Assembly (NCBI GenBank): GCA_038065315.1
Contig: JBBTRF010000001.1
Location: 300,776 to 364,775 of the forward strand
Direction: 5' to 3'
Origin: Patescibacteria group bacterium
Lineage (GTDB): Bacteria; Patescibacteriota; Minisyncoccia; Phycocordibacterales; JBBTRF01
DNA: 64,000 nucleotides
Under the pieces are notes generated by a model. It was not told the DNA's origin and ran no database searches. It worked only from the letters and a program-made list of their open reading frames with translations. Shown piece after piece: positions 1,936-63,163 of the stretch (positions are counted from its first letter, which is position 1; every line of letters starts with the position of its first letter). Position numbers and translations under genes: made by a program.

Positions 1936-2721
1936 TCAAAGCCCTCTCAGCATCGCCGCCAAACTATTGATTGGCAGAAAATCTGCCGGATTGACGCCGT
2001 CTCGACGAGTCTTAATACCTACGACATCGCCATTGAGAGCAATCAAGGGTTCGGCACTATAGTTGAGCAGTGAATCGGTCTCAATGTTCGAAGGAGTGCC
2101 GTCGGAATTGGTGATGAGGCCGGTGACAGTGCTGCGAGAGATAACGTTGCGGTCTGCTCCAGCGAGCACGATCACATCTTGTCCGATCTTCACCGTATTT
2201 GAATCGCCCATTTTTATCGGCTTCAAGTGATAGTCGAGCTTCGGATCGAGACGCGCCTTGAACACGGCGACCTTAATAGCGTCATTTCGTGCCACGAGGT
2301 CGAGGTCGAGAATTTTTCCATCAGACATCACTGCCAAATACGAGCCGCCTTCCACGACAATGCTCTTGTCCGCGACGATCCAATCTTTTGATACAACAAG
2401 ACCGAGGCCAGCGAAAGTCGGCGGATCAGCATTGACCGTACCCTTGATACGGACGAGGCTCTTGGCATTCTTTTCCACCGCAGAGACTACAAGATCCTCG
2501 GCATTGGCATGACTGCCGTCTTGGGAAATGATCACTGTTGCTGGAGTGCCGCCAGGGACGACTTTTTCCACGGTGCGTTCGATGACGCGGTTGATGGTCT
2601 GGGTGACTCCCTGCGGTGCTTGCTCGACGAGCGCGACTGTCACAATGCCGGTGGCTACGGAAGTAATAAAACTGACCAATAGCGTCACGAGGACGATCTG
2701 ATGTTTCGTGAGCTCTTCCAT
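1936..2721 (-). CDS. trypsin-like (HtrA/S1C-like) serine protease, membrane-anchored, no PDZ domain
   Basis: Starts at the internal Met MEELTKHQIVLVTLLVSF (TM anchor). The protease domain is HtrA-like (DAIKVAVFKA, TNSDGTPS, VVGIKT). The upstream part of the track ORF overlaps the next gene, so the start is set at 2721, where a TACAAT box lies 9 nt upstream. Confidence 0.5.
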   Translation of the reverse strand: MEELTKHQIVLVTLLVSFITSVATGIVTVALVEQAPQGVTQTINRVIERTVEKVVPGGTPATVIISQDGSHANAEDLVVSAVEKNAKSLVRIKGTVNADPPTFAGLGLVVSKDWIVADKSIVVEGGSYLAVMSDGKILDLDLVARNDAIKVAVFKARLDPKLDYHLKPIKMGDSNTVKIGQDVIVLAGADRNVISRSTVTGLITNSDGTPSNIETDSLLNYSAEPLIALNGDVVGIKTRRDGVNPADFLPINSLAAMLRGL

Positions 2722-2734
2722 GCCGAGTATTGTA

Positions 2735-4084
2735 TCAAATGGAACGCAGCGACTCAACAAGGGCAATGATTGCGCGGTCGATGTCACGCTTGGTCGTCCA
2801 GCGGCCAAAGGAGAAGCGGAGGGCGTGCGGGGTGCGAGGCACGGAAGCGGCCGACAGGATGCCGGCGGCAATGGCGGCGGCTTGCGCGCGGCGGAGCGCG
2901 CGGATCACGTAGGATTCGTCCTCGTCGCGAAGGCAAGCGCTCTTGGTGGAGCACGCGACGCCGCGCGCATCCAATTTCAACAGTAAAAATTCGTGATCAA
3001 TTGGCGGCGCACCAACATCGGTCGGTTGAAACGAAACACTCACAATGTGCGGAGACTGGTGCTGGGAATCAATATCAGATGAGCCGTTCAAAAACAGTTG
3101 AACATGCGGAGTTTTTTTGGCGAGCTTTTCCTGCGCGTGCAGGATGAAATAATTTCGCAACTCCGTGAGTCGCGCCACCTCGCGCTCTCGCAAGCCTTCG
3201 GCAAGCTCGAGCGCCTTCGCCATTCCCACTGCTCCAGGCACATTCTCTGTCCCCGATCGCACACCGCGCTCTTGTCCGCCGCCGTACATGATCGGCATGA
3301 GTTCGATGCCACGCCGCACCCACAGCACCCCAACGCTTCGCGGGCCACACACCTTGTGACTATCGAGAGTAATCAAATCTGCACCGAGTTGCGTGGTCGA
3401 GAGCTTTGCGTAGAGCGGCGACTGACTCGCATCACAATGGAACAGCGGAAACAAGACCTGAGAGAGAGCGTTAGTATCTCTCGCGATCATTCCAGCAAGC
3501 ACATTTTCTTTTCGAGCCTTGCGCACCGCTTTCGCCACTTCGTCGATCGGTTGAACGGTGCCGATCTCGTTGTTTACCGACATCACCGAGACCAAAAATG
3601 TATTGGGGCGAAGTTTTTTGCGCAGCTCAGCAACATCAACGCTGCCGGTTGCATCAATTGAAAGATGTTCAACTGTCACGCCAACCTCGCTAAGGTGTCG
3701 CATCGATTCAAGCACAGAAGTGTGCTCGATTTCTGAGACGAGGCAGTGCAGATCGCTCGGCTTCAAGCCGTACCCACCGAGGGTCTTTGGCATGACGAGT
3801 TTTTTGAATAGACCAAAGATGGCAAGATTGTTCGCTTCGGTGCCAGTGGCCACAAACAAGATTTCGTCGGCGTGAGCATTCAGCGTGCGCGCCACCCTAG
3901 CCCGTGCTTCGGAGAGCGCACGTCGAGCGTGCACGCCATCCGCATGAATCGCCGATGGGTTGGCAAAATGCCGTTGCACGGTCTGCGCAATCTCTCGAGA
4001 CACACGAATATCCGGCGGCGTCAGTGCAGCGTAATCCAAATATATTCGTGATTTTTGGGCCAATCTATTGAGGAAATCCAACAT
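2735..4084 (-). CDS. cysteine desulfurase (class V aminotransferase, IscS/NifS-like)
   Basis: Carries the PLP-lysine region LDSHKVCGPRSVGVLWVRRG, GTENVPGAVGMAKALELA, and a C-terminal active-site Cys region. The start is taken at MLDFLN (4084), which has a GATACCAT -10-like box 8 nt upstream. Confidence 0.85.
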   Translation of the reverse strand: MLDFLNRLAQKSRIYLDYAALTPPDIRVSREIAQTVQRHFANPSAIHADGVHARRALSEARARVARTLNAHADEILFVATGTEANNLAIFGLFKKLVMPKTLGGYGLKPSDLHCLVSEIEHTSVLESMRHLSEVGVTVEHLSIDATGSVDVAELRKKLRPNTFLVSVMSVNNEIGTVQPIDEVAKAVRKARKENVLAGMIARDTNALSQVLFPLFHCDASQSPLYAKLSTTQLGADLITLDSHKVCGPRSVGVLWVRRGIELMPIMYGGGQERGVRSGTENVPGAVGMAKALELAEGLREREVARLTELRNYFILHAQEKLAKKTPHVQLFLNGSSDIDSQHQSPHIVSVSFQPTDVGAPPIDHEFLLLKLDARGVACSTKSACLRDEDESYVIRALRRAQAAAIAAGILSAASVPRTPHALRFSFGRWTTKRDIDRAIIALVESLRSI

Positions 4085-7411: not shown

Positions 7412-8215
7412 ATGGACCGGCGTGTGCCGAATCCTCTTTTCAAAACAACAACCCTCAACACAAGGAGGTCGACGGTGAACGCAACACTACCAGAAACAAC
7501 AAGGACGTCTGGCCAGGACACGAACCTGACAAGCAGTCGTCATCGCGGTCACAACAACACCAAACACACCGGCGGTATTCGGCAGAACAGCCGTGAACGC
7601 CGGTGGGCACAGCGACACGATTCCCTGCGCGCCACGATCCTCCAGAACTGCGGACTCATGCCGCTCACCGCAAGCGAAGCGGAGCAGCACAGGCTACAGG
7701 TGAAGCAGCAATTCTTCGCCGACCTCGCTGAATGGGTGCGGACGTCGCCGACGTTGGCTCGTCAACTCGCCATGAGCTGGAAGTTTCCGGCGATCATCAT
7801 GAGTCTCGGCTTCCTGCTCGGCTTGGCTTTTGGTAGCATGTTCGCTTGGGTTGGCCTGGCATCTGTGTATGCCTTTGGCGGCTGGTTGAAAGAGGCCATC
7901 AAGGAAGCCTCGGATACCAAGGCTTACCGCCATGAAGCGAGCACAAGAATCGCAGCTTACGCCAAGTGGAAGGTCGGGCAGAGTTGGACATGCAAACCCT
8001 ATGAGATGTTCCTCTTGCTATCAGCACTCAAAGCCCCCGAGAAACTCCAGCAGGCAGTGCTGAAGATCGAAGCTCGGCATCCAGATGCAGAGTTCGAGCT
8101 AGAGACCTTCGACGAAGACCCGATACTGTCGGTTCGGCGCCCGAAGATGACTGGCGGCTACGAACACTACGTGCTCGGCGCTTGGGGCCTGCCGGAGAAG
8201 TTCACGTTCCGCTGA
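7412..8215 (+). CDS. hypothetical protein with central TM segments (GC-rich)
   Basis: The track ORF (7379) starts at TTG. The first ATG is at 7412 (MDRRVPNP). The N-terminus is basic and Ser/Thr-rich. I recognise no domain. Confidence 0.35.
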   Translation: MDRRVPNPLFKTTTLNTRRSTVNATLPETTRTSGQDTNLTSSRHRGHNNTKHTGGIRQNSRERRWAQRHDSLRATILQNCGLMPLTASEAEQHRLQVKQQFFADLAEWVRTSPTLARQLAMSWKFPAIIMSLGFLLGLAFGSMFAWVGLASVYAFGGWLKEAIKEASDTKAYRHEASTRIAAYAKWKVGQSWTCKPYEMFLLLSALKAPEKLQQAVLKIEARHPDAEFELETFDEDPILSVRRPKMTGGYEHYVLGAWGLPEKFTFR

Positions 8216-8461: not shown

Positions 8462-8534
8462 GCACCTATAGCTCAGTTGGTAGAGCATCCGCCTCTTAAG
8501 CGGTAGGTCGTAGGTTCGAATCCTACTGGGTGCA
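8462..8534 (+). tRNA. tRNA-Lys (CTT)
   Basis: Sequence GCACCTATAGCTCAGTTGGTAGAGCATCCGCCTCTTAAGCGG...GGTTCGAATCCTACTGGGTGCA, which folds as a cloverleaf with anticodon CTT. A TGTTATATT box lies 12 nt upstream. Confidence 0.85.
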
Positions 8535-8541
8535 CCTGACG

Positions 8542-8572
8542 AAACAAATCCGGACCATTCCCGGATTTTTTC
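8542..8572 (+). terminator. rho-independent terminator after tRNA-Lys
   Basis: AAATCCGG-accattc-CCGGATTT followed by TTTTTC. Confidence 0.6.
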
Positions 8573-8697
8573 GTACAGGTGCAAGCCGGAGGCATGTTTT
8601 GTCAGCAGGCAAAACAGCCGAGGCGGGGTCGAGGAAATTTCTGAGCGACGGCGAAGAAATTATCCGTGACCACTCAAATATGCTACGATACCCCTAT

Positions 8698-8781
8698 GCG
8701 CGGGTGGTGAAATGGCAGACACGCTTGCCTTAGGAGCAAGTGCCGCAAGGCATGGAGGTTCAAGTCCTCTCCCGCGCACCA
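8698..8781 (+). tRNA. tRNA-Leu (TAG), type II, CCA encoded
   Basis: Sequence GCGCGGGTGGTGAAATGGCAGACACGCTTGCCTTAGGAGCAAG...GGTTCAAGTCCTCTCCCGCGCACCA. The anticodon loop CTTAGGA gives TAG. A TGCTACGAT box lies 8 nt upstream. Confidence 0.8.
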
Positions 8782-8785
8782 TATG

Positions 8786-8817
8786 AAAAATGGCCGACTC
8801 TCTGTCGGCTTTTTTTC
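8786..8817 (+). terminator. rho-independent terminator after tRNA-Leu
   Basis: GGCCGAC-tctct-GTCGGC followed by TTTTTTT. Confidence 0.7.
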
Positions 8818-8821
8818 ATAC

Positions 8822-8945
8822 CAAAGCGGAGAGGACTTGAAAGCCGGAAGAAAAGCTTCGGGGAAGCTTTTCTGAGGCGGGGCCGAGAGGCTTCGAGCAC
8901 AGCGAGAAGAACTCGTGGCCAAGCCTCTCCCGCGCACCACTTGAC
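8822..8945 (+). repeat. tRNA-Leu-derived remnant / tRNA-like element
   Basis: Contains an inverted copy of the tRNA-Leu T-arm (GCGGAGAGGACTTGAA), an 11-bp hairpin (AGAAAAGCTTC-GGGG-GAAGCTTTTCT), a second inverted repeat (GAGAGGCTT...AAGCCTCTC), and a direct copy of the tRNA 3' end (CCTCTCCCGCGCACCA). Confidence 0.5.
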
Positions 8946-9007
8946 GAAGTACCGTATTACTGATATGCTACTTTTTGTTCTCAACCAAAACTGCGGTCTT
9001 TGAAACC

Positions 9008-19394: not shown

Positions 19395-22300
19395 TTACAA
19401 ACACACCGCGCTCGCCAATGTGTCACCATCTCGCAGGCGCATAATACGTACGCCTTGGGTCTGTCGGCCGAGGACCGGAATCTCCTTGATATCGCAGCGG
19501 ATGACCTGGCTCTTTTTGGAGATGGCCACGAGCTCGTTGGCACCATCACCGACCTCGCCTTCTTTCACCTCCTTGGCAGCCGCAGCCACATCCACCACGC
19601 TCGAAGTGATGACCTTGCCGGTCTTGTCGGTGATTTTCGCGGTCAAAATACCGGAGCCGCCGCGCTTCTGCACCTTGTATTCGGAGAGCTCAGTCTGCTT
19701 GCCGTAGCCGTTGCTCATGATCACGAGCAGTGCTGGCTTTTTCATATCCTTCTTCACCACATCGGCACCAATGACGGTGTCGCCCTTTTCGAGACGCATC
19801 GCAATGACACCCATGGCTGCGCGGCCCATTTCGCGGATATCGGTTTCCTTGAATCGGATCGACTGACCTTCGCTGGTCGCAAGGATCACCTCATCGCCCT
19901 TCTCGACAAATCGTACCGACACGAGACTATCGCCAGACTCCAGACCGATAGCGATGAGGCCACTTCGTCGAACATCGTGGAAGGTTTCGGCATTCACCTT
20001 CTTGCCCACGCCATTTTTGGTGATCATGAAGAGACTGAGACCGCTTTTCTTCACCTCCTTCGGCATCGGGAGAATCGAGGTGACGCGTTCGTCGTCGGCC
20101 AGTGCCAAAAAGTTTACGATTGACTTGCCCTTGGTCGCGCGCTTGCCTTCAGGGATCTCGTACATCTTGATCTGGTACGCCTTGCCCTTGTTCGTGAAGA
20201 ACAGCATGTCCGCATGCGTGTTCGCATTCAAAATATGGGTGATGAAATCCTCTTCTTTCGTATCGAGATCCACCACACCTACACCGCCGCGCTTCTGTCG
20301 GCGATACTCGTCTGGCAAGGTACGCTTGATGTAGCCACCCGCAGTGAACACGAGCACAGAGTCCACGTCTGGGATGGTGTCCTCAGGCTTAAATTCCTTC
20401 ACACCTCCACGGATGACCTTGGTGCGTCGCTCGTCGCCATATTTTGCACGCACTTCGAGCAGTTCTTTCTTGATCACCGCCAAAATCTTCTTCGCGCTCG
20501 AGAGCAAATCCTTGAGCTCGCGAATGAGCGCCTGCACAGCGTTGAGTTCGTCTTCAATCTTCTGTCGTTCGAGGCCCGCGAGACGCGACAGCTTCATTTC
20601 CAAAATAGCAGTCGCCTGGCGGTCGGAGAATTTGAAGGTCTTCATCAAATTGAGATGCGCCTCCGGGGTGTCCTTCGACTTTTTGATCAATTTAATGATC
20701 TCGTCGATATGGTCGAGCGCTTTCTTGAGGCCGAGCAAAATATGCTCACGGTCTTCAGCCTTGCGGAGGTCAAATTCGGTGCGACGACGCACCACCACCT
20801 GTCGATGCTTAATGAATTCCTCGAGCACGCTCTTGAGCGAGAGTGTCTGCGGCACGCCGTCCACGAGGGCAACGGTGTTGAAGTGGAACGTATCTTCGAG
20901 CTGTGTGTGTTTATACAAAAAGTTCAGCACGGCCTGTGGGAAAGCACCCTGCTTGAGGTCGATCACCACGCGAATGTCTTTCGTAGACTCGTCTCGGAGG
21001 CCCTTGATACCTTCGACCTTCTTCTCGCGAACGAGGTCGGCGATGGTCAAAATAAGGTCGGCTTTGTTCACTCGATATGGGATCGAGGTGATGATAATCT
21101 GGAACGAGCCGTTCTTAGTCTCCACGATTTCCGCTTCGCCGCGCACCACCACGCCGCCGCGGCCAGTGGTATACGCATGCTTCATTTCGGCAGAAGCGTA
21201 CAGCATCGCGCCAGTCGGGAAATCCGGACCCTTCACAAATTGCAAAAGGTCTTCCGCAGAAGCATCGGAGTTGTCGATGAGATGCGTGGTCGCATCCACC
21301 ACTTCGCCGAGATTGTGCGGCGGAATGTTGGTCGCCATACCGACGGCGATACCAAGGGTGCCGTTCAAAAGGAGATTCGGGACAGCAGCCGGCAGCACGC
21401 CCGGCTCTTTTCGAGTGTTTTCGTAGTTTGGTCGGAAGTCGACAGTGTCTTTCTCAATATCCTGGAGCATCACGGTCGAGATGCGCGCCATCTTCGCCTC
21501 AGTGTATCGTTCTGCCGCGGCGCCGTCACCGTCGATTGAGTTGTGCACGAATACGCCCGCCGCCAGCGCAAAATTGTGGCTTACCGGCACAGTGAGGTCG
21601 TATACATCTTCGCGTTCGCCTGAGAATTCAACGCGAGAAACTTTGTGGTTTCCCACGAGCTCAACCGTAAGTCGGTCGAGATTAGAACCGTAATATTTAC
21701 TGAAACCAACCTCCCATGAAGTGGCCGACCTGTACGGGTACACCTTCGGACGAAATTCTTCGTAAGTCTCCTTGGAAAGCGGTACACCCTTCTCGATCAA
21801 TTTCTTGCAAACCGTGTCGAATTTCTTCTTCCCGGTCTTGTTTGTGGTGTGATTTTTGTTTCCCTTGATGATCCGCGCGTGCATCTCTTGGCGATACGCC
21901 TCATCCTGCCACAAACGCTTCAAGGTCTTGGTTGCGCGAGCCGAAAGTTCCAGACGCTTTTCTGGATGAGCTGCAATGTACTCAAGATTCACTCGACTGA
22001 GCGTCTCGATCATCTGCGCACGGTATTCAGGATTCTGCCAATTCTGCTTATTCCTTTCCGACATCGCCTGGCTATACTGCTCTTTTACGCCAGCCTTTGC
22101 ACGAAACGCCTTTCTACCTTCCGCAAGCTTCTTTACGTACTCGGGATCATTTTTATGTCGGCCAGCAGTCAGTTCGGAATGAAGTCTCCAATGATCGATC
22201 CATTGCATTCGCTGGATATTTTCTGGACTATTGTTGCCTTTATTAAAATCGACATGATGTCGGACCTTGCCGGCTGACTTGGCATATTTACCAATAGAAA

Positions 22301-23141
22301 TGTTGAGGGCATCGGCCAAATGATGCGCATACTCCCAAGTATTATCGAGAGGTTGGTAGATCATCTCGTATCCAACCATATCCGAAAGTGCACTTTCTCC
22401 TTTTTCAGAAAGACGGCTGTACAAAGGCATCAATGATTCACCTGGCTTTAGATATTGCGCCTCTTTATAATCCTGATTCTTCAGAAGGAATTTGTGGTTT
22501 AGCGTACATTTGATCTCTTTTCCATTGTCGAGCACCACCTTCATGATCTCAGCGTCCTTAATCGTCAGTCGCGGCTTTATCAATTGAGCAATTTCCACCT
22601 TTCCCTCTTTTGAAACAGTGAAGGTGTAATTTTTCTTGCCCTTCTTGTCCTCATTGATGAGTTCACCAAAAGAAAGATTGCGCCCATCAGCGAGTCGAAC
22701 TTCCGTATCTTTTGTAAAACAACCGAAGTTACCCTGGCCGATGATCAGCGGGTATCGAATCGAAAAATCCTGCGCCATCTTCACCATAGATTCATACACC
22801 GCGACGTTGCCGTGCGGGTGATATTTTCCGAGCACGTCTCCCACCACCGCCGCAGACTTTCGCGTCTTCGCGCTCGCCACCAGGCCCATCTCGTGCATTG
22901 CATACAAGATACGTCGGTGCACCGGCTTCAAACCGTCGCGCACGTCAGGCAGGGCTCGCGCAGTGATCACGGACATCGCGTAGTCCAAATACGAGTCGCG
23001 CATTTCGGTAGTGATGCTGCGACTCACCACGTTCTCGCGTGCAGGCAAAGCCGACGCCTCTGATGCGCCACTTTTTCCGCCCTTATCGCTTTTGCCTTCG
23101 CTGCCGCCCTTTGGCTTCTTGTCTGAATCTTTAGATGACAT
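19395..23141 (-). CDS. gyrA: DNA gyrase subunit A, intein-containing precursor (1248 aa)
   Basis: N-extein ends ...IIGQGNFG and the C-extein resumes SIDGDGAAAERYTEAKM, with the active-site Tyr region intact. The rest is a normal GyrA, including the C-terminal beta-pinwheel repeats. Confidence 0.95.
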   Translation of the reverse strand: MSSKDSDKKPKGGSEGKSDKGGKSGASEASALPARENVVSRSITTEMRDSYLDYAMSVITARALPDVRDGLKPVHRRILYAMHEMGLVASAKTRKSAAVVGDVLGKYHPHGNVAVYESMVKMAQDFSIRYPLIIGQGNFGCFTKDTEVRLADGRNLSFGELINEDKKGKKNYTFTVSKEGKVEIAQLIKPRLTIKDAEIMKVVLDNGKEIKCTLNHKFLLKNQDYKEAQYLKPGESLMPLYSRLSEKGESALSDMVGYEMIYQPLDNTWEYAHHLADALNISIGKYAKSAGKVRHHVDFNKGNNSPENIQRMQWIDHWRLHSELTAGRHKNDPEYVKKLAEGRKAFRAKAGVKEQYSQAMSERNKQNWQNPEYRAQMIETLSRVNLEYIAAHPEKRLELSARATKTLKRLWQDEAYRQEMHARIIKGNKNHTTNKTGKKKFDTVCKKLIEKGVPLSKETYEEFRPKVYPYRSATSWEVGFSKYYGSNLDRLTVELVGNHKVSRVEFSGEREDVYDLTVPVSHNFALAAGVFVHNSIDGDGAAAERYTEAKMARISTVMLQDIEKDTVDFRPNYENTRKEPGVLPAAVPNLLLNGTLGIAVGMATNIPPHNLGEVVDATTHLIDNSDASAEDLLQFVKGPDFPTGAMLYASAEMKHAYTTGRGGVVVRGEAEIVETKNGSFQIIITSIPYRVNKADLILTIADLVREKKVEGIKGLRDESTKDIRVVIDLKQGAFPQAVLNFLYKHTQLEDTFHFNTVALVDGVPQTLSLKSVLEEFIKHRQVVVRRRTEFDLRKAEDREHILLGLKKALDHIDEIIKLIKKSKDTPEAHLNLMKTFKFSDRQATAILEMKLSRLAGLERQKIEDELNAVQALIRELKDLLSSAKKILAVIKKELLEVRAKYGDERRTKVIRGGVKEFKPEDTIPDVDSVLVFTAGGYIKRTLPDEYRRQKRGGVGVVDLDTKEEDFITHILNANTHADMLFFTNKGKAYQIKMYEIPEGKRATKGKSIVNFLALADDERVTSILPMPKEVKKSGLSLFMITKNGVGKKVNAETFHDVRRSGLIAIGLESGDSLVSVRFVEKGDEVILATSEGQSIRFKETDIREMGRAAMGVIAMRLEKGDTVIGADVVKKDMKKPALLVIMSNGYGKQTELSEYKVQKRGGSGILTAKITDKTGKVITSSVVDVAAAAKEVKEGEVGDGANELVAISKKSQVIRCDIKEIPVLGRQTQGVRIMRLRDGDTLASAVCL
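21540..22721 (-). mobile_element. GyrA intein (394 aa) with HNH-type endonuclease domain
   Basis: Begins with Cys (CFTKDTEV...) and ends ...VFVHN, followed by a Ser. The internal HNH motif is HHVDFNKGNNSPENIQRMQWIDHWRLH. The insertion lies between GNFG and SIDGDG, about 10 aa before the catalytic Tyr. Confidence 0.85.
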
Positions 23142-46845: not shown

Positions 46846-46898
46846 AACAATTAGATTATTCCATCGATTAACAAATCTTTCAAACACACTCGATGAAT

Positions 46899-47046
46899 CG
46901 GTCCTTACAGGACCAGTACGGGTTTCCCATTTTCTCGGAGCAGAACTCCTCGAAAATATGGGAGAACCCTTTCGATTCTCAGACGCAAGTGCCTCAAGGC
47001 ACTTGCTTACCCGCACAAACAAAGCCCCTTTCGGGGCGTTTGTCGT
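46899..47046 (-). repeat. tRNA-adjacent conserved structured element, copy 1 (3' of tRNA-Gly)
   Basis: On the minus strand, 32 nt after the tRNA-Gly CCA, it begins GCGGGTA (identical to the tRNA-Gly 5' acceptor) + AG. Then comes hairpin GCAAGTGCC-TTGA-GGCACTTGC, a T-arm-like GAGAATCGAAAGGGTTCTC, and ~75 nt that is ~90% identical to copy 2 at 62699-62841, ending in hairpin GGTCCTGTAAGGACC. Confidence 0.7.
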
Positions 47047-47049
47047 TGG

Positions 47050-47120
47050 TGCGGGTACTGAGAATCGAACTCAGGTCTCAACCTTGGGAAGGTCGCATTC
47101 TACCACTAAACCATACCCGC
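47050..47120 (-). tRNA. tRNA-Gly (CCC), CCA encoded (47047-47049)
   Basis: The reverse complement GCGGGTATGGTTTAGTGGTAGAATGCGACCTTCCCAAGGTTG...CTGAGTTCGATTCTCAGTACCCGCACCA folds with anticodon CCC. It is followed by hairpin GCCCC-GAAA-GGGGC + TTTGTTTG. Confidence 0.85.
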
Positions 47121-60175: not shown

Positions 60176-62647
60176 CTAGCGCCACGTAAACGACTTCACC
60201 GCTTGATCGAAAATGAGAACATTTTTCTCGAAGTCCGCCTCATCATCAATGTAAGAAATCCAGCGTTTCATTTCATCCTTATCGATAAATACCTGCTTCA
60301 CTTTCAACTTTGGCGGAAGTTGTCCTTCGGTCCCAAATTCGCCTTGATATGACCCTACAAAGTAGGCGGCAGGGTTGCCATCAACAGTGGTCGTGCCAGT
60401 CTCAAGTAGTTTGAATCCTTTCGTCTCTCCATACCACTGCTTCCAGGAAATCACTGAGTCATCTCGGTAGTCGGCGATTGGATATTTTCTAGGATACAGT
60501 TCGGCATCGATGACGCCAACACCCATCACTCCACGAAACACGTCTTCTGATTCCAATAATGGCATGTATGACTCGACGGTTAGATTAGGAATGTCGAGCT
60601 CAGCGTTTCTTGACCACTCTTTCGGGACTGTAAGCGTGTGACCGAATTGGCGATTTTCGTACACCGCAAGGCTGTCGTCAGTATCGGTTACCGAGGAGAC
60701 AGTATCAGTTATCGTGAATGTTCGCGAGACTTTTTGTATCAATGAATCCTGGATCTCTGGACCGTTGAATCCATCGAAAGCGAGGGTGTACACCTTCCCA
60801 TTGTGGGCCGCAAAAATAGCGGTTACCGTAGATGTCGCGATATCTCCAACATCTCGAAAACTGAAAGACAGGAGGGTTGCATCGTACCCAGACAGTTTGG
60901 TAGGCTCATTTCGTTCAATAACAAAGCTCTGAGCAGCTCTCGTACTAAGGCGGATGTAGGTGTCCACAAAATCCTTTAACCCTTTCGCGTAGCGATTCAC
61001 AGAAACTCGAATTCTTTGATTATCGACTAAGAAGCCGTCGACGTCATACTCCGGCTTCACGAAGCGTGCGATGTGCCCATCTTCTGGAGTGCCCCCGACT
61101 GAAAGCCATTCGCTTGGATACTCGAGGACAAAGCCATAATCACGATTCATGTAACGACTAATATCGCCCACCGTCTTCTGAGTGTAGTATGGATACCAGG
61201 AAGCGATCATAGACCTCGCGTCTGGAAGATATTTCGAGAAATCAGCGGGAGTAGCCTCATAAGAAAGTAGGTAATAGAAGTTGCCCCTCAGGAAGAATGT
61301 TTGAAACACTTTTCGAGGACCGACGATGCTAGAAGTCGTTGAGGAAAGTCTCTCAATCACGTAGGTGATTTCTGTTGATGGATAAATTGAAATCGTACTT
61401 GTTGCGACCATCATAGAGACAACCTTCGATTTTTGGTTCTCTTTAATTGAAGAAATGAGGAAGTCTCTGAATGAATCCTCATCTTTGGCTGTCTCTGGTA
61501 AATTACCGACAGTGATGACGATGGCGGTAGTCGATGCGATCGATTTGTTATCTGGACCGAAAATAATTTGATGACCGTAGACCTCTGAATCCGACGCGAG
61601 AGCCTCGCCAGTCTTCCGCCAAGATACAGGATAATCTATCGTGAATAAATCTGTCGCGTTTTCTGAGGTAAAGTATGTTTCGTGCGGAACCACCACCTGC
61701 TCTAGCTCACTGAAGCGGTTGGCTGAGATGGCCTCTTTGAAACCGAGGTAAAAGGCGACCGAAGAAATCGTGATTAGGCCAATGATGGCGACAGCCATTG
61801 AAGCCACGAGCTTCTTCTTTCGCTTTTTGTCGAGAGCTTCATCCGGTGCAATCTCTGCGGCTCTTATCGAGCGGAGATCGTAGTAGATTTCAAATACCGT
61901 GAGGATAGAGAGTGGTGCAAAAAAGAGGAAAATGCCAGCGGCAAAAATAATTCCAGCGACAACATATACAATAATGCTAATAATCGTGCCCTTGAAAAGT
62001 ATCGCAAGGACTACTGTTGGGATCGCCAAAATAGCTGTGGCCAAAAGAGTGAGTAGGCCGACGAGGAGGGTGGTGCTGATCATTCTAAGCAACACTTTCC
62101 ACCAATACCCGCGGACCAATCTCCAGCTCCCCAAGATCGCTTGGAAACCCTTCCGCCCTTCTTCAAACAACTCGTACTGAGAAAACACTAGATATCCGGA
62201 CAAAATAATACCGGGAACAATGAAAAGAAGTGTCGCACCCGCAGTCGCTAGTGACGAAATAATAGATATAAGAATAAGTGACCAGAATAGCGGTCTTGCC
62301 TTTCTGTACGCATCTTTTATGCCGACAAACTGCCCTTTGCGAATATCGACAATACTTTTGAAAAGTGCAACCTTGGAAAGCAGGAGAAAGAGCCAAAGAA
62401 GTAGACCGAGGATAAGGGAGAGAATGATCATGGATACAGACATGCTCAAATCCCCAGTTCCCTTATCGATGGTATCTGAAAAGTTACCGAGGCGCAGACT
62501 GACATTTCCCAAACCACCGAGCAAAAAGAGCGGCCACAATTTTTTAAAATGCTCTTTGTAGAATGTGTAGGCTTTTTTTACAAGCAACGACGGACCGAGT
62601 AACGTCCTTTTCTCCACACCGAGCGGCGCGATTGTGTTTGGATCCAT
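60176..62647 (-). CDS. large hypothetical membrane protein (823 aa; N-terminal polytopic region, C-terminal extracytoplasmic domain)
   Basis: ~8 TM in the first 330 aa, then a ~490-aa soluble domain. No domain recognised. TAAGAAT lies 7 nt upstream of the ATG. Confidence 0.5.
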   Translation of the reverse strand: MDPNTIAPLGVEKRTLLGPSLLVKKAYTFYKEHFKKLWPLFLLGGLGNVSLRLGNFSDTIDKGTGDLSMSVSMIILSLILGLLLWLFLLLSKVALFKSIVDIRKGQFVGIKDAYRKARPLFWSLILISIISSLATAGATLLFIVPGIILSGYLVFSQYELFEEGRKGFQAILGSWRLVRGYWWKVLLRMISTTLLVGLLTLLATAILAIPTVVLAILFKGTIISIIVYVVAGIIFAAGIFLFFAPLSILTVFEIYYDLRSIRAAEIAPDEALDKKRKKKLVASMAVAIIGLITISSVAFYLGFKEAISANRFSELEQVVVPHETYFTSENATDLFTIDYPVSWRKTGEALASDSEVYGHQIIFGPDNKSIASTTAIVITVGNLPETAKDEDSFRDFLISSIKENQKSKVVSMMVATSTISIYPSTEITYVIERLSSTTSSIVGPRKVFQTFFLRGNFYYLLSYEATPADFSKYLPDARSMIASWYPYYTQKTVGDISRYMNRDYGFVLEYPSEWLSVGGTPEDGHIARFVKPEYDVDGFLVDNQRIRVSVNRYAKGLKDFVDTYIRLSTRAAQSFVIERNEPTKLSGYDATLLSFSFRDVGDIATSTVTAIFAAHNGKVYTLAFDGFNGPEIQDSLIQKVSRTFTITDTVSSVTDTDDSLAVYENRQFGHTLTVPKEWSRNAELDIPNLTVESYMPLLESEDVFRGVMGVGVIDAELYPRKYPIADYRDDSVISWKQWYGETKGFKLLETGTTTVDGNPAAYFVGSYQGEFGTEGQLPPKLKVKQVFIDKDEMKRWISYIDDEADFEKNVLIFDQAVKSFTWR

Positions 62648-62698
62648 GATGTTATTCTTATCAATGATACGCGAATGGTTCTGGAACGTAAAGGGATT

Positions 62699-62862
62699 CG
62701 GTCCTTACAGGACCACCCTAGAAGCTTCGGTCCTTGCAGGACCAGTACGGGTTTCCCATTTTCTTGGAGCAAAGCTCCTCGAAAATATGGGAGAACCTTT
62801 TCGAATCCCTCACGCAGGCACTCAAGTGCCTGCTTCTTTCCTCCGTTCGCTCCGCTCACTGC
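62699..62862 (-). repeat. tRNA-adjacent conserved structured element, copy 2 (3' of tRNA-Ser)
   Basis: On the minus strand, 21 nt after tRNA-Ser, it begins GGAAAGA (identical to the tRNA-Ser 5' acceptor) + AG. Then hairpin GCAGGCAC-TTGA-GTGCCTGC (compensatory relative to copy 1), GAGGGATTCGAAAAGGTTCTC, the shared ~75-nt core, and the terminal hairpin GGTCCTGyAAGGACC present twice in tandem. Confidence 0.7.
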
Positions 62863-62949
62863 GGAAAGAGAGGGATTCGAACCCTCGATACCCTTTCGGA
62901 TATACAACCTTTCCAGGGTTGCCCATTCGACCGCTCTGGCATCTTTCCA
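62863..62949 (-). tRNA. tRNA-Ser (GGA), type II
   Basis: The reverse complement GGAAAGATGCCAGAGCGGTCGAATGGGCAACCCTGGAAAGGTTG (anticodon GGA), variable arm TATATCCGAAAGGGTATC, T-arm GAGGGTTCGAATCCCTC, acceptor TCTTTCC-G. Confidence 0.8.
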
Positions 62950-62959
62950 ATATGTAGTT

Positions 62960-63163
62960 TTATACTGTCACGATCTGAATCGGCCGACTTAAGTCGCCCT
63001 TAGAAATGACATCTGAAGCACTTAGCAGCTCGATGCCGACGATGCGTCCCTCCTTATCAACGTCGGCATGGAAGCCTCCTCCCACCTCGACGGTACGCTC
63101 GATATCACCAGATCGAAAAGAGAGATACAGAGCATCGATATTTTTATCATACGTTACTTTCAT
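62960..63163 (-). CDS. DUF2283 family protein (antitoxin-like partner)
   Basis: 67 aa (MKVTYDKNIDALYLSF...GRIVGIELLSAS) matches DUF2283 (family from memory). Overlaps the upstream DUF4258 gene by 17 nt. Confidence 0.65.
   Translation of the reverse strand: MKVTYDKNIDALYLSFRSGDIERTVEVGGGFHADVDKEGRIVGIELLSASDVISKGDLSRPIQIVTV

Follow-up and report, generated by a model that had tools for sequence, protein, structure and literature searches.

Tyrosine-integrase prophages, integrative and conjugative elements and integrase-less cis-mobilizable elements insert in the 3' part of tRNA genes with a crossover in the T-loop; they bring a replacement 3' end that preserves the tRNA, leave the displaced end behind as a direct repeat (attL/attR), and can accrete in tandem at one tRNA. 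Integron attC sites and the attP(+) site of the CTX phage are strand-specific, imperfect hairpins: two inverted segments of one strand form the stem, the terminal loop varies and an extrahelical feature is present. Exchange of a single strand at such a folded site is established for both. Members of the IS200/IS605 insertion sequences (IS) and the miniature palindrome-associated transposable elements have small hairpin ends, lack terminal inverted repeats and insert 3' of a short specific sequence, and in IS200/IS605 an internal segment base-pairs with the target. Here we describe an element with likenesses to these systems that lies directly behind tRNA-Ser(GGA) in a 64,000-nt stretch of a Patescibacteria group bacterium (assembly GCA_038065315.1, contig JBBTRF010000001.1, positions 300,776 to 364,775; hereafter the window). 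This element is called copy 2, since a related copy 1 follows tRNA-Gly(CCC) in the same window. The explanation that we favour, and to which we give about an even chance, is that copy 2 belongs to a group of ∼140-160-bp non-coding, non-autonomous insertion elements of Patescibacteria that are site-specific for the tRNA T-loop and carry a folded target-recognition segment.

The present element differs from the integrative elements of tRNA genes by its size of ∼150 bp, the lack of genes and of any integrase within tens of kb, an internal segment antisense to the target next to a conserved hairpin module, and the use of the same scaffold for at least five tRNA specificities. It shares with them the flanking repeat of the tRNA end beside an intact tRNA and the existence of empty sites (loci L029 and L032), but an adjacent integrase is missing. 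As in attC and attP(+), a strand-specific imperfect hairpin with a variable loop is laid out for exchange at the base of its stem, in a way that fits single-strand exchange plus replication, and cassette-like tandem arrays occur. The partner site is a tRNA gene, however, the stem is target-specific where theirs is generic, and no recombinase is encoded in the examined sequence. Neither the attC core RYYYAAC/GTTRRRY nor the XerC/D arms of dif are present, the stem being tRNA sequence in which GTTCGAT fits GTTRRRY at six of seven positions. The junction is placed 3' of T55 instead of at G/TT. The guides of IS200/IS605 comprise 4-5 nt and no target is duplicated, whereas here 19 nt pair and a 15-19-nt repeat is formed, the hairpins on the left and right show no relation to each other, and neither TnpA nor TnpB is found nearby. 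Miniature inverted-repeat transposable elements and other non-autonomous IS have terminal inverted repeats and a sequence-independent duplication of 2-10 bp; here the left end is a tRNA-end copy or variable spacer and the right end reads ...GGACCGA, so that the two do not form inverted repeats, and the repeat of 15-19 nt is always a tRNA end. Literature searches by sequence strings and by concept retrieved no description of this element.

Copy 2 and its complementarity to the neighbouring tRNA

ARAGORN identified 11 tRNA genes in the window. Copy 2 is located on the minus strand directly 3' of tRNA-Ser(GGA), and every feature previously described for it was found in place. Its three hairpins are named hp1, hp2 and hp3, and the features, all on the minus strand, are as follows.

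62861-62948, minus: tRNA-Ser(GGA), called by ARAGORN and scored at 55.5 bits by the Rfam tRNA model
62881-62875, minus: T-loop TTCGAAT of tRNA-Ser, followed by CCCTCTCTTTCC at 62874-62863
62876-62862, minus: last 15 nt of tRNA-Ser, from T-loop position 59 to the discriminator, which under the insertion model would be supplied by the element (attL side)
62861-62842, minus: purine-rich spacer CAGTGAGCGGAGCGAACGGA of 20 nt with an AGCGAA motif, predicted apical loop of the fold-back helix
62841-62835, minus: heptamer GGAAAGA, Watson-Crick complement of the 3' acceptor strand TCTTTCC
62834-62814, minus: hp1 AGCAGGCACTTGAGTGCCTGC, branch hairpin AGC...GC of 8-9 bp with loop TTGA, between the two antisense segments
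62813-62812, minus: linker GT, preceding GAGGGATTCGAA
62811-62800, minus: 12-mer GAGGGATTCGAA, i.e. GAGGG plus ATTCGAA, complementary at 12/12 positions to the 3' T-stem strand CCCTC and the T-loop TTCGAAT
62799-62749, minus: hp2, long hairpin whose tip varies and whose twice-bulged base is conserved (GGTTCTCCCATATTTT / AAAATGGGAAACC)
62748-62727, minus: linker GTACT, hp3 GGTCCTGCAAGGACC and GA, the usual right end of the family (...GGACCGA)
62743-62729, minus: first terminal hairpin hp3, GGTCCTGCAAGGACC
62726-62698, minus: lineage-specific duplication, comprising the separator remainder AGCTTCTAGGGT, the second hp3 and GA
62714-62700, minus: second terminal hairpin hp3, GGTCCTGTAAGGACC
62697-62685, minus: decayed direct repeat of the tRNA 3' end, ATCCCTTTACG.. 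compared to ATCCCTCTCTTTCCG, putatively the displaced original end (attR)

The 3' end of tRNA-Ser reads TTCGAAT-CCCTC-TCTTTCC, and its reverse complement GGAAAGA-GAGGG-ATTCGAA exactly equals the heptamer joined to the 12-mer, which hp1 separates in the element. A preceding interpretation made from the letters of the window (the sequence-only reading) had taken GAGGGATTCGAA for a copy of the T-arm. This has to be corrected: in the 12-mer, the T-loop TTCGAAT appears as its reverse complement, after the 5' strand of the T-stem. Since this part follows the T-loop as its complement, with AATCGAA for T-loop TTCGATT and ATTCGAA for TTCGAAT, the segment is antisense in orientation. The reported identity of the heptamer with the 5' acceptor strand GGAAAGA of tRNA-Ser is real, but the heptamer is better described as complement of the 3' acceptor strand, as in L009 the heptamer GACCCTA is perfectly complementary to TAGGGTC, while the tRNA's own 5' strand GGCCCTA forms a G.U pair there.

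Both window copies are complementary to their own tRNA at 19/19 positions, the own tRNA being the best match of the 11 in the window, and a perfect 12-mer antisense to T-stem and T-loop within 70 nt downstream exists for only three of these 11 tRNAs. Among nine distinct elements of the family, 92.4% of the target/heptamer/12-mer cells are paired and compensatory changes occur at 12 of the 19 pairs; none of 500 shuffles attained the observed pairing values, and no register shift came close. The adjacent tRNA was the best match among 20 tRNAs for 10 of the 11 elements with a known neighbour. With regard to the 12 variable positions of these 11 elements, all 12 form Watson-Crick pairs in six, 11 do so with an additional G.U pair in one, 10 of 12 pair in two that contain tandem G.A mismatches, and 9 of 12 in one. 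The 5-nt T-stem part pairs via G.U in L016 and L014, and the heptamer of L014 has lost its match to the tRNA. The tandem G.A/A.G inside the 7-bp helix is the sole mismatch of the tRNA-Arg elements L006 and L010 (heptamer against acceptor GCGACCG and CGGGAGC, or CCTCGAG and CGAGAGG, respectively) and may be a structural motif instead of decay.

Pairing is not confined to the tRNA but runs on into the trailer in L024 (TACCCGCACAAAAT / ATTTTGTGCGGGTA), L018 (11 bp) and L009 (9 bp). The bases preceding the heptamer are TGT, GGA, GGT or AGT, without a consistent TGG as complement of CCA. Because the pairing enters non-tRNA sequence and the CCA complement is inconsistent, the partner is the adjacent genomic copy and not the mature tRNA in trans.

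A fixed sequence that was inserted twice and matched its neighbours by chance has nothing in its favour beyond the smallness of a 7-mer, and is already refuted by the 19/19 matches in both copies, their reproduction with five tRNA identities and the shuffle test. On this point the sequence-only reading, which had argued against two independent insertions, was borne out. It would have yielded to heptamer matches missing from further loci, and the tRNA-specific parts were found again at many.

The proposal that copy 2 has the architecture of copy 1 also holds, since copy 1 shows the same order from 47014 to 46900.

46885-47120, minus: copy 1 region, with tRNA-Gly(CCC) at 47120-47047
47037-47024, minus: terminator hairpin in the spacer
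47014-47008, minus: heptamer GCGGGTA
47007-46985, minus: hp1
46982-46971, minus: 12-mer CTGAGAATCGAA
46970-46920, minus: hp2
46914-46900, minus: hp3, single
46899-46885, minus: decayed repeat

Two core strings of 23-29 nt occur within the window at copies 1 and 2 only, where none would be expected by chance. The terminal hairpin is indeed present twice in copy 2, at 62743-62729 and 62714-62700, and the separator between the two reads GAAGCTTCTAGGGT (formerly given on the plus strand as ACCCTAGAAGCTT). This tandem duplication is confined to the lineage of copy 2, as the syntenic Ser(GGA) copies L016 and L034 as well as L019 have a single hairpin; it is a local peculiarity of copy 2 outside the design of the family. 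The spacer of copy 2 contains no terminator and has the same sequence in L019 and L034, and another in L016. In both window copies the next gene starts ∼52 nt past the element.

Recurrence and probable insertion at tRNA genes

This architecture was found again at 15 additional loci, all on contigs of Patescibacteria (candidate phyla radiation, CPR), behind tRNA-Gly(CCC), -Ser(GGA), -Arg(GCG), -Arg(CCG) and -Glu(CTC). A scan with an exact 20-mer of one genome per species yielded five true copies and one chance match, the true copies belonging to metagenome-assembled genomes (MAGs) of Patescibacteria (Parcubacteria, Taylorbacteria, Nomurabacteria, Paceibacterota and one labelled Saccharibacteria). 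Seven further true loci and six chance matches in coding sequence came from a 19-base degenerate scan of metagenome contigs, and L033, L034 and L035 were added by synteny look-ups. Loci L007, L012, L013, L015, L020, L021 and L023 were discarded on reading as chance matches to the scan patterns. Exact-pattern scans of the IMG/VR viral contigs gave 0 matches, and blastn with copy 1 found no match in phage and plasmid collections.

In L018, L019, L024, L008 and L014 an exact copy of the tRNA 3' end directly follows ...GGACCGA. This direct repeat extends from T-loop position 59, after CGA, to one or two bases past the discriminator (for example TTCTCGCTACCCGCAC), has a few mismatches in L009, and mirrors lineage-specific differences of the tRNA, with CTCGG/CACCCGC in L014 compared to CTCGC/TACCCGC in L018. 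The downstream repeat is intact in L019 (AATCCCTCTCTTTCCGCA), partly decayed in L034 and decayed in both window copies (GATTCATCGAGTGTG; GAATCCCTTTACG), which therefore represent older insertions. The tRNA gene is left intact, and the tRNAs beside the element score normally. L018 and L022 contain two perfect tandem units of 156 bp, each with tRNA-end copy, spacer, antisense segment, hp2 and hp3, and L010 contains two diverged units with CCTGCCGAGAGGAC after each. In L014, a truncated second unit of spacer and half of hp1, ending ...CTTGG|CACCC, is present past the intact repeat (1962-2020, plus strand).

The syntenic LepA-DivIC-tRNA-Gly(CCC) locus is filled in copy 1 (W1), L014, L018, L024 and L033, and empty in L029 (DivIC 84% identical) and L032 (73%). 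L032 and L009 come from one MAG, in which tRNA-Gly is thus empty and tRNA-Glu(CTC) occupied, and the genome of the window has its Gly and Ser genes occupied. Integration at the tRNA, one of the candidate processes named by the sequence-only reading, is backed by these flanking repeats, by the tandem units of L018 and L010 and by the empty sites of relatives. Contigs break at or inside the element in L008, L011, L017, L022 and L035, the last of which ends (2786) exactly at ...GGTTCGA in the T-loop. This suggests assembly breaks induced by repeats, and the family is probably under-represented in assemblies.

Mosaic copies are also found. L033 (element 3404-3560, plus strand) is the syntenic counterpart of copy 1 and almost identical to it in terminator, heptamer, hp1 (one compensatory pair) and 12-mer. 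Its hp2/hp3 part, in contrast, has strongly diverged with retention of the shape (GGCTTTTCC...GGAAAAGC; CTGGCTAC-GTA-GTAGCCGA), and modules appear to have been exchanged between elements. L014 and L017 have an identical hp1 next to different tRNA-matching segments and flanks. The perfect complementarity and conserved module of old copies with a decaying repeat, together with these mosaics, would fit selection in place, repeated overwriting through incoming copies or template-switch correction of the quasipalindrome. Gene conversion, likewise considered before, may have contributed in part: some templated homogenisation is plausible, as the antisense segment stays perfect while the repeat decays and L014 and L017 share hp1.

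The mosaics also bear on the possibility that the element spreads among competent CPR bacteria by natural transformation and homologous or homology-facilitated recombination without any dedicated machinery. The tRNA gene and the downstream repeat would then act as homology arms, for which the flanks are exactly suited, the inverted segment would be a palindrome maintained by template-switch (quasipalindrome) correction, and hp2/hp3 would be a small RNA carried as cargo. The left part of L033, which equals copy 1 but is joined to another module, the common hp1 with different flanks in L014 and L017, the perfect inverted repeat past the tRNA and the lack of an enzyme gene all agree with this. 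It leaves unexplained, however, the first insertion at each new type of tRNA with the same ...GGACCGA junction in at least five tRNAs, and the constant position of hp1 at the acceptor/T-stem boundary of the palindrome, and we consider it unlikely.

Folding, transcription and a possible mechanism

RNAalifold applied to 13 aligned elements gave the three hairpins. Only the closing AGC...GC of hp1 is kept, with compensatory changes at seven of nine pairs; accordingly, copy 2 (W2), L016 and L034 differ by paired substitutions, the sequence of hp1 being variable and its pairing retained. In hp2, which also covaries, the twice-bulged base is conserved and the tip varies in sequence and length, and hp3 is invariant among the 13 sampled elements. 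One pair of hp2 is U.G in 8 of the 13 sequences, and since such G.U pairs would be A.C on the opposite strand, the folded strand is the tRNA-sense strand. For the co-transcript with tRNA-Ser the predicted fold has −115.8 kcal/mol (z = −6.2) and is dominated by the fold-back helix with hp1 as a branch; in this minimum-energy structure the helix replaces the acceptor and T arms of tRNA-Ser. As DNA, one unit of L018 is predicted to fold with −57.2 kcal/mol (z = −10.9), again with a dominant fold-back helix and hp1 as a branch. A small open reading frame (ORF) from hp2, MGNPYWSCKDR..., was rejected as coding: all its variable positions fall in loops and linkers, hp2 tips are longer by 19 or 30 nt, and the upstream non-ORF strand is conserved to the same degree.

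We propose that insertion would take place at or just past CGA of TTCGA in the T-loop. In the observed order of parts, the integrated unit would begin with a copy of tRNA positions 59 to 73/74 that completes the gene, followed by a variable spacer, frequently a terminator, then by the antisense segment with 7 nt against the 3' acceptor strand, hp1 and 12 nt against the 3' T-stem strand and T-loop, the structured hp2/hp3 module ending in ...GGACCGA, and finally the displaced original tRNA 3' end as direct repeat. In a single-stranded sense strand the antisense segment could pair with the tRNA-end copy, or across the right-end junction, to form a duplex image of the target, at which an enzyme encoded elsewhere may recombine the element or recognise its target. 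hp1 would then correspond to the extrahelical feature and the spacer to the variable terminal loop. The layout target-left / tRNA-end copy - loop - inverse copy - module - CGA / target-right is precisely the product expected from exchange of one strand between the folded hairpin and the duplex target, followed by replication. Once the element is inserted, selection or template-switch correction would preserve the match of the inverted repeat to the tRNA, whereas the repeat downstream decays.

An intrinsic terminator (GCCCCGAAAGGGGC-TTTGTTTGT) forms the fold-back loop of copy 1, L006, L011 and L033, and the tRNA transcript of these copies should therefore end before the antisense segment. Since about half of the copies have a terminator at this position, folded single-stranded DNA is favoured over RNA. 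Promoter-like sites are located only downstream of the elements, ahead of the next genes (minus strand, 62692-62664 and 46883-46855, in or just past the decayed tRNA-end repeats), and no internal promoter was found.

As an alternative, the element could be transcribed by read-through from the tRNA promoter, with hp2/hp3 as a protein-binding scaffold and the 7+12-nt segment as a guide that directs a recombinase or nuclease, encoded in trans, towards the tRNA gene or the tRNA, comparable in principle to bridge RNAs, omega RNAs or the tRNA-homing CRISPR RNAs of CRISPR-associated transposons. Such an RNA is in line with the order of a variable guide-like 5' segment and a structured, conserved 3' module, with the G.U pairs of the sense strand and with the missing terminator in copy 2 and several others, and RNA-guided TIGR-Tas (tandem interspaced guide RNA) systems do occur in CPR bacteria (PMC12045711). 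However, a terminator separates tRNA and segment in about half of the elements (copy 1, L006, L011, L033 and the second family, B, described below), no internal promoter was detected, no effector gene is located near the elements, both guide parts are directed against one strand, other than in bridge or TIGR RNAs, and the complementarity enters the local trailer, which argues for a hairpin in cis and not a guide in trans. We regard a guide RNA as rather unlikely.

The bridge (seek) RNAs of IS110/IS1111 and TIGR RNAs have, like the present element, a bipartite guide around a stem-loop, reprogrammable specificity and a conserved scaffold. Their two halves pair with opposite strands, though, a recombinase or Nop-domain gene is adjacent, and target plus donor loops or 36-nt arrays are formed, whereas here a single interrupted segment has both halves directed against the same strand and no DEDD (RuvC-like)/Tnp gene was found. 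TIGR-Tas loci consist of 36-nt tandem-spacer arrays whose spacers address opposite strands and which stand beside a Nop-domain Tas gene (PMC12045711); our units measure ∼156 bp in one or two copies, and no Nop-domain gene is among the Pfam labels. OMEGA (obligate mobile element-guided activity) RNAs carry a contiguous terminal guide taken from the flanking DNA, next to TnpB or IscB, and are covered by curated RNA models; here neither an Rfam match at E up to 10 nor a nuclease gene nearby was obtained. Box C/D or H/ACA guides were also rejected: the order guide-hairpin-guide resembles an H/ACA pocket, but ACA and C/D boxes are absent and the target would have no unpaired nucleotides. Small ribozymes (hammerhead, hairpin, hepatitis delta virus-like, twister) and group II domain V were dismissed for lack of core motifs by inspection and of Rfam matches.

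Within ∼70 kb around the window copies, Pfam labels include no integrase, transposase, reverse transcriptase or Nop-domain protein, and only housekeeping functions such as FtsA/FtsZ, LepA, GyrA with an intein, aminoacyl-tRNA synthetases, ribonucleotide reductase and MurJ. An all-against-all comparison of the ORFs from 12 loci recovered LepA and DivIC as the only common families, reflecting host synteny. Rfam searches of the window at the gathering score and of 62600-63000 at E up to 10 returned tRNAs and noise only.

The predicted co-transcript fold would also suit a host trailer acting in cis, in which the antisense segment folds onto the nascent T-arm and acceptor and controls folding, processing or level of the tRNA, the repeats being incidental. 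For this speak the exchange of acceptor and T arms for the fold-back helix in the minimum-energy structure, the perfect complementarity of old copies despite decay of the repeat, and the persistence of the element at the syntenic Ser(GGA) loci of the diverged relatives L016 and L034. But terminators precede the antisense segment in many copies, relatives with empty sites manage without the element, and direct repeats, tandem units and differing tRNA occupancy require an insertion process regardless; we consider this explanation quite unlikely. T-box riboswitches, with specifier-anticodon and bulge-NCCA pairing, gave no Rfam match, and the pairing partners here, T-loop, T-stem and acceptor strand, lie buried in the folded tRNA. 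Group I introns have a catalytic core P3-P9 and interrupt the tRNA until spliced; no Intron_gpI match was obtained, the ∼140 nt form three hairpins and the tRNA is complete without splicing; group I introns are known from tRNA anticodon loops of Patescibacteria (PMC13011429). A tRNA-like structure of heptamer, hp1 and a T-stem pairing with the downstream repeat would be possible with an intact repeat, which has decayed in both window copies, and this candidate was rejected.

A tRNA-primed process had also been suggested by the sequence-only reading. In such a retroelement the tRNA primer would regenerate the antisense segment as a primer-binding site, and a stop of reverse transcription would set the boundary of the duplication after A58. 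Retroviral and other long-terminal-repeat elements have a primer-binding site that pairs with a specific tRNA from its 3' end to the T-loop, with the repeat beside position 58. Likewise, the complementarity found here spans the 3' 19 nt of the tRNA, and by this analogy the repeat starts beside position 58. A primer-binding site is, however, a contiguous complement of ∼18 nt including CCA that is accompanied by a reverse transcriptase, whereas here the complement is split by a hairpin of 21-23 nt, pairing extends into the genomic trailer in place of a consistent CCA complement, and no reverse transcriptase is encoded in the neighbourhood. Group II introns are reported to be absent from Patescibacteria (PMC13011429), which also counts against this reading, and we judge it very improbable.

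Several points weigh against insertion guided by a folded segment. No enzyme was identified and no excised or circular form was seen. The old copies of the window keep a perfect antisense segment and nearly invariant hp2/hp3. This points to a function at their present site, in cis or for the host, and not to mobility alone. Tandem units could be formed by slippage between the direct repeats and not by repeated integration. Due to the sampling with exact 19-20-mers, the invariance of the module is partly a matter of ascertainment, and the module of L033 has in fact diverged. Copies without terminator, such as copy 2, should be co-transcribed with the tRNA and could act as RNA. Finally, the unmatched heptamer of L014 and the two G.A mismatches of L006 and L010 imply that full pairing is not obligatory.

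Beyond membership in a family of insertion elements, there is a fair chance that this site-specific, tRNA-targeted element uses a genuinely new guide-based mechanism. In its most specific form, a cassette without proteins would encode its own integration address, the 7+12-nt antisense selecting the tRNA gene, rewritable by exchange of 12 nt (possibly by self-templated hairpin correction), and integration relying on an unknown or host recombinase. We hold this for possible, although doubtful. If true, it would establish a new class of nucleic-acid-guided site-specific integration, in which the modules of families A (the present one) and B, small structured RNAs or DNAs, are cargo and the tRNA genes of CPR bacteria are platforms similar to integrons. 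If the antisense segment sets the insertion site, a minimal and naturally re-addressable module of ∼150 bp with 12 variable nt would be at hand, of interest for the mechanism of mobile DNA and as a possible tool. The more modest reading still adds two unannotated, strongly structured non-coding families to the Patescibacteria.

Family B and further observations of the window

A second family (B) with the same layout is located at 8782-8939 on the plus strand, 3' of tRNA-Leu(TAG) (8698-8781). Rfam searches of 8530-8960 at E up to 1 gave tRNAs and noise only, i.e. no match for family B, which comprises the following features.

8793-8816, plus: terminator
8826-8841, plus: contiguous antisense GCGGAGAGGACTTGAA, complementary at 12/12 positions to the 3' T-stem strand and the T-loop TTCAAGT
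after the antisense, plus: structured module different from that of family A, AGCCGGAAG...GAGGCGGGGCCGAGAGG...CGTGGCCAAG
8920-8923, plus: CAAG ahead of the repeat, matching T-loop positions 56-59
8924-8939, plus: intact direct repeat of the tRNA 3' end including CCA, CCTCTCCCGCGCACCA

A decayed copy of family B follows tRNA-Lys(CTT) (8462-8536) at 8537-8680 on the plus strand; it has a terminator, a truncated antisense GGTGCA at 8578-8583 and a module with GAGGCGGGGTCGAGG at 8620-8634, and its downstream repeat is gone. In L017, tRNA-Lys(TTT) is followed by a divergent A-like element and then by the same B module (7440-7530, minus strand), a case of different elements stacked at a single tRNA. 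The tRNA genes in the reduced genomes of CPR bacteria thus bear layered small insertions that replace the tRNA 3' end and terminator, with consequences for tRNA annotation, for assembly through contig breaks and for views of DNA exchange in CPR. A consistent orientation to replication was rejected, as by GC skew family A occupies the G-rich strand and family B the opposite one.

A purine-rich loop motif around AGCGAA or GAACGAAGTGAG recurs in varied hairpin loops of both families: in the spacer loops of copy 2 (62861-62842), L016, L018, L024, L009, L010 and L011, in the hp2 loop of L033 and in the module loop of family B (window 8643-8656). The GyrA gene of the window (19395-23141, minus strand) carries its intein as a Pfam Intein_splicing domain between two DNA_topoisoIV segments.

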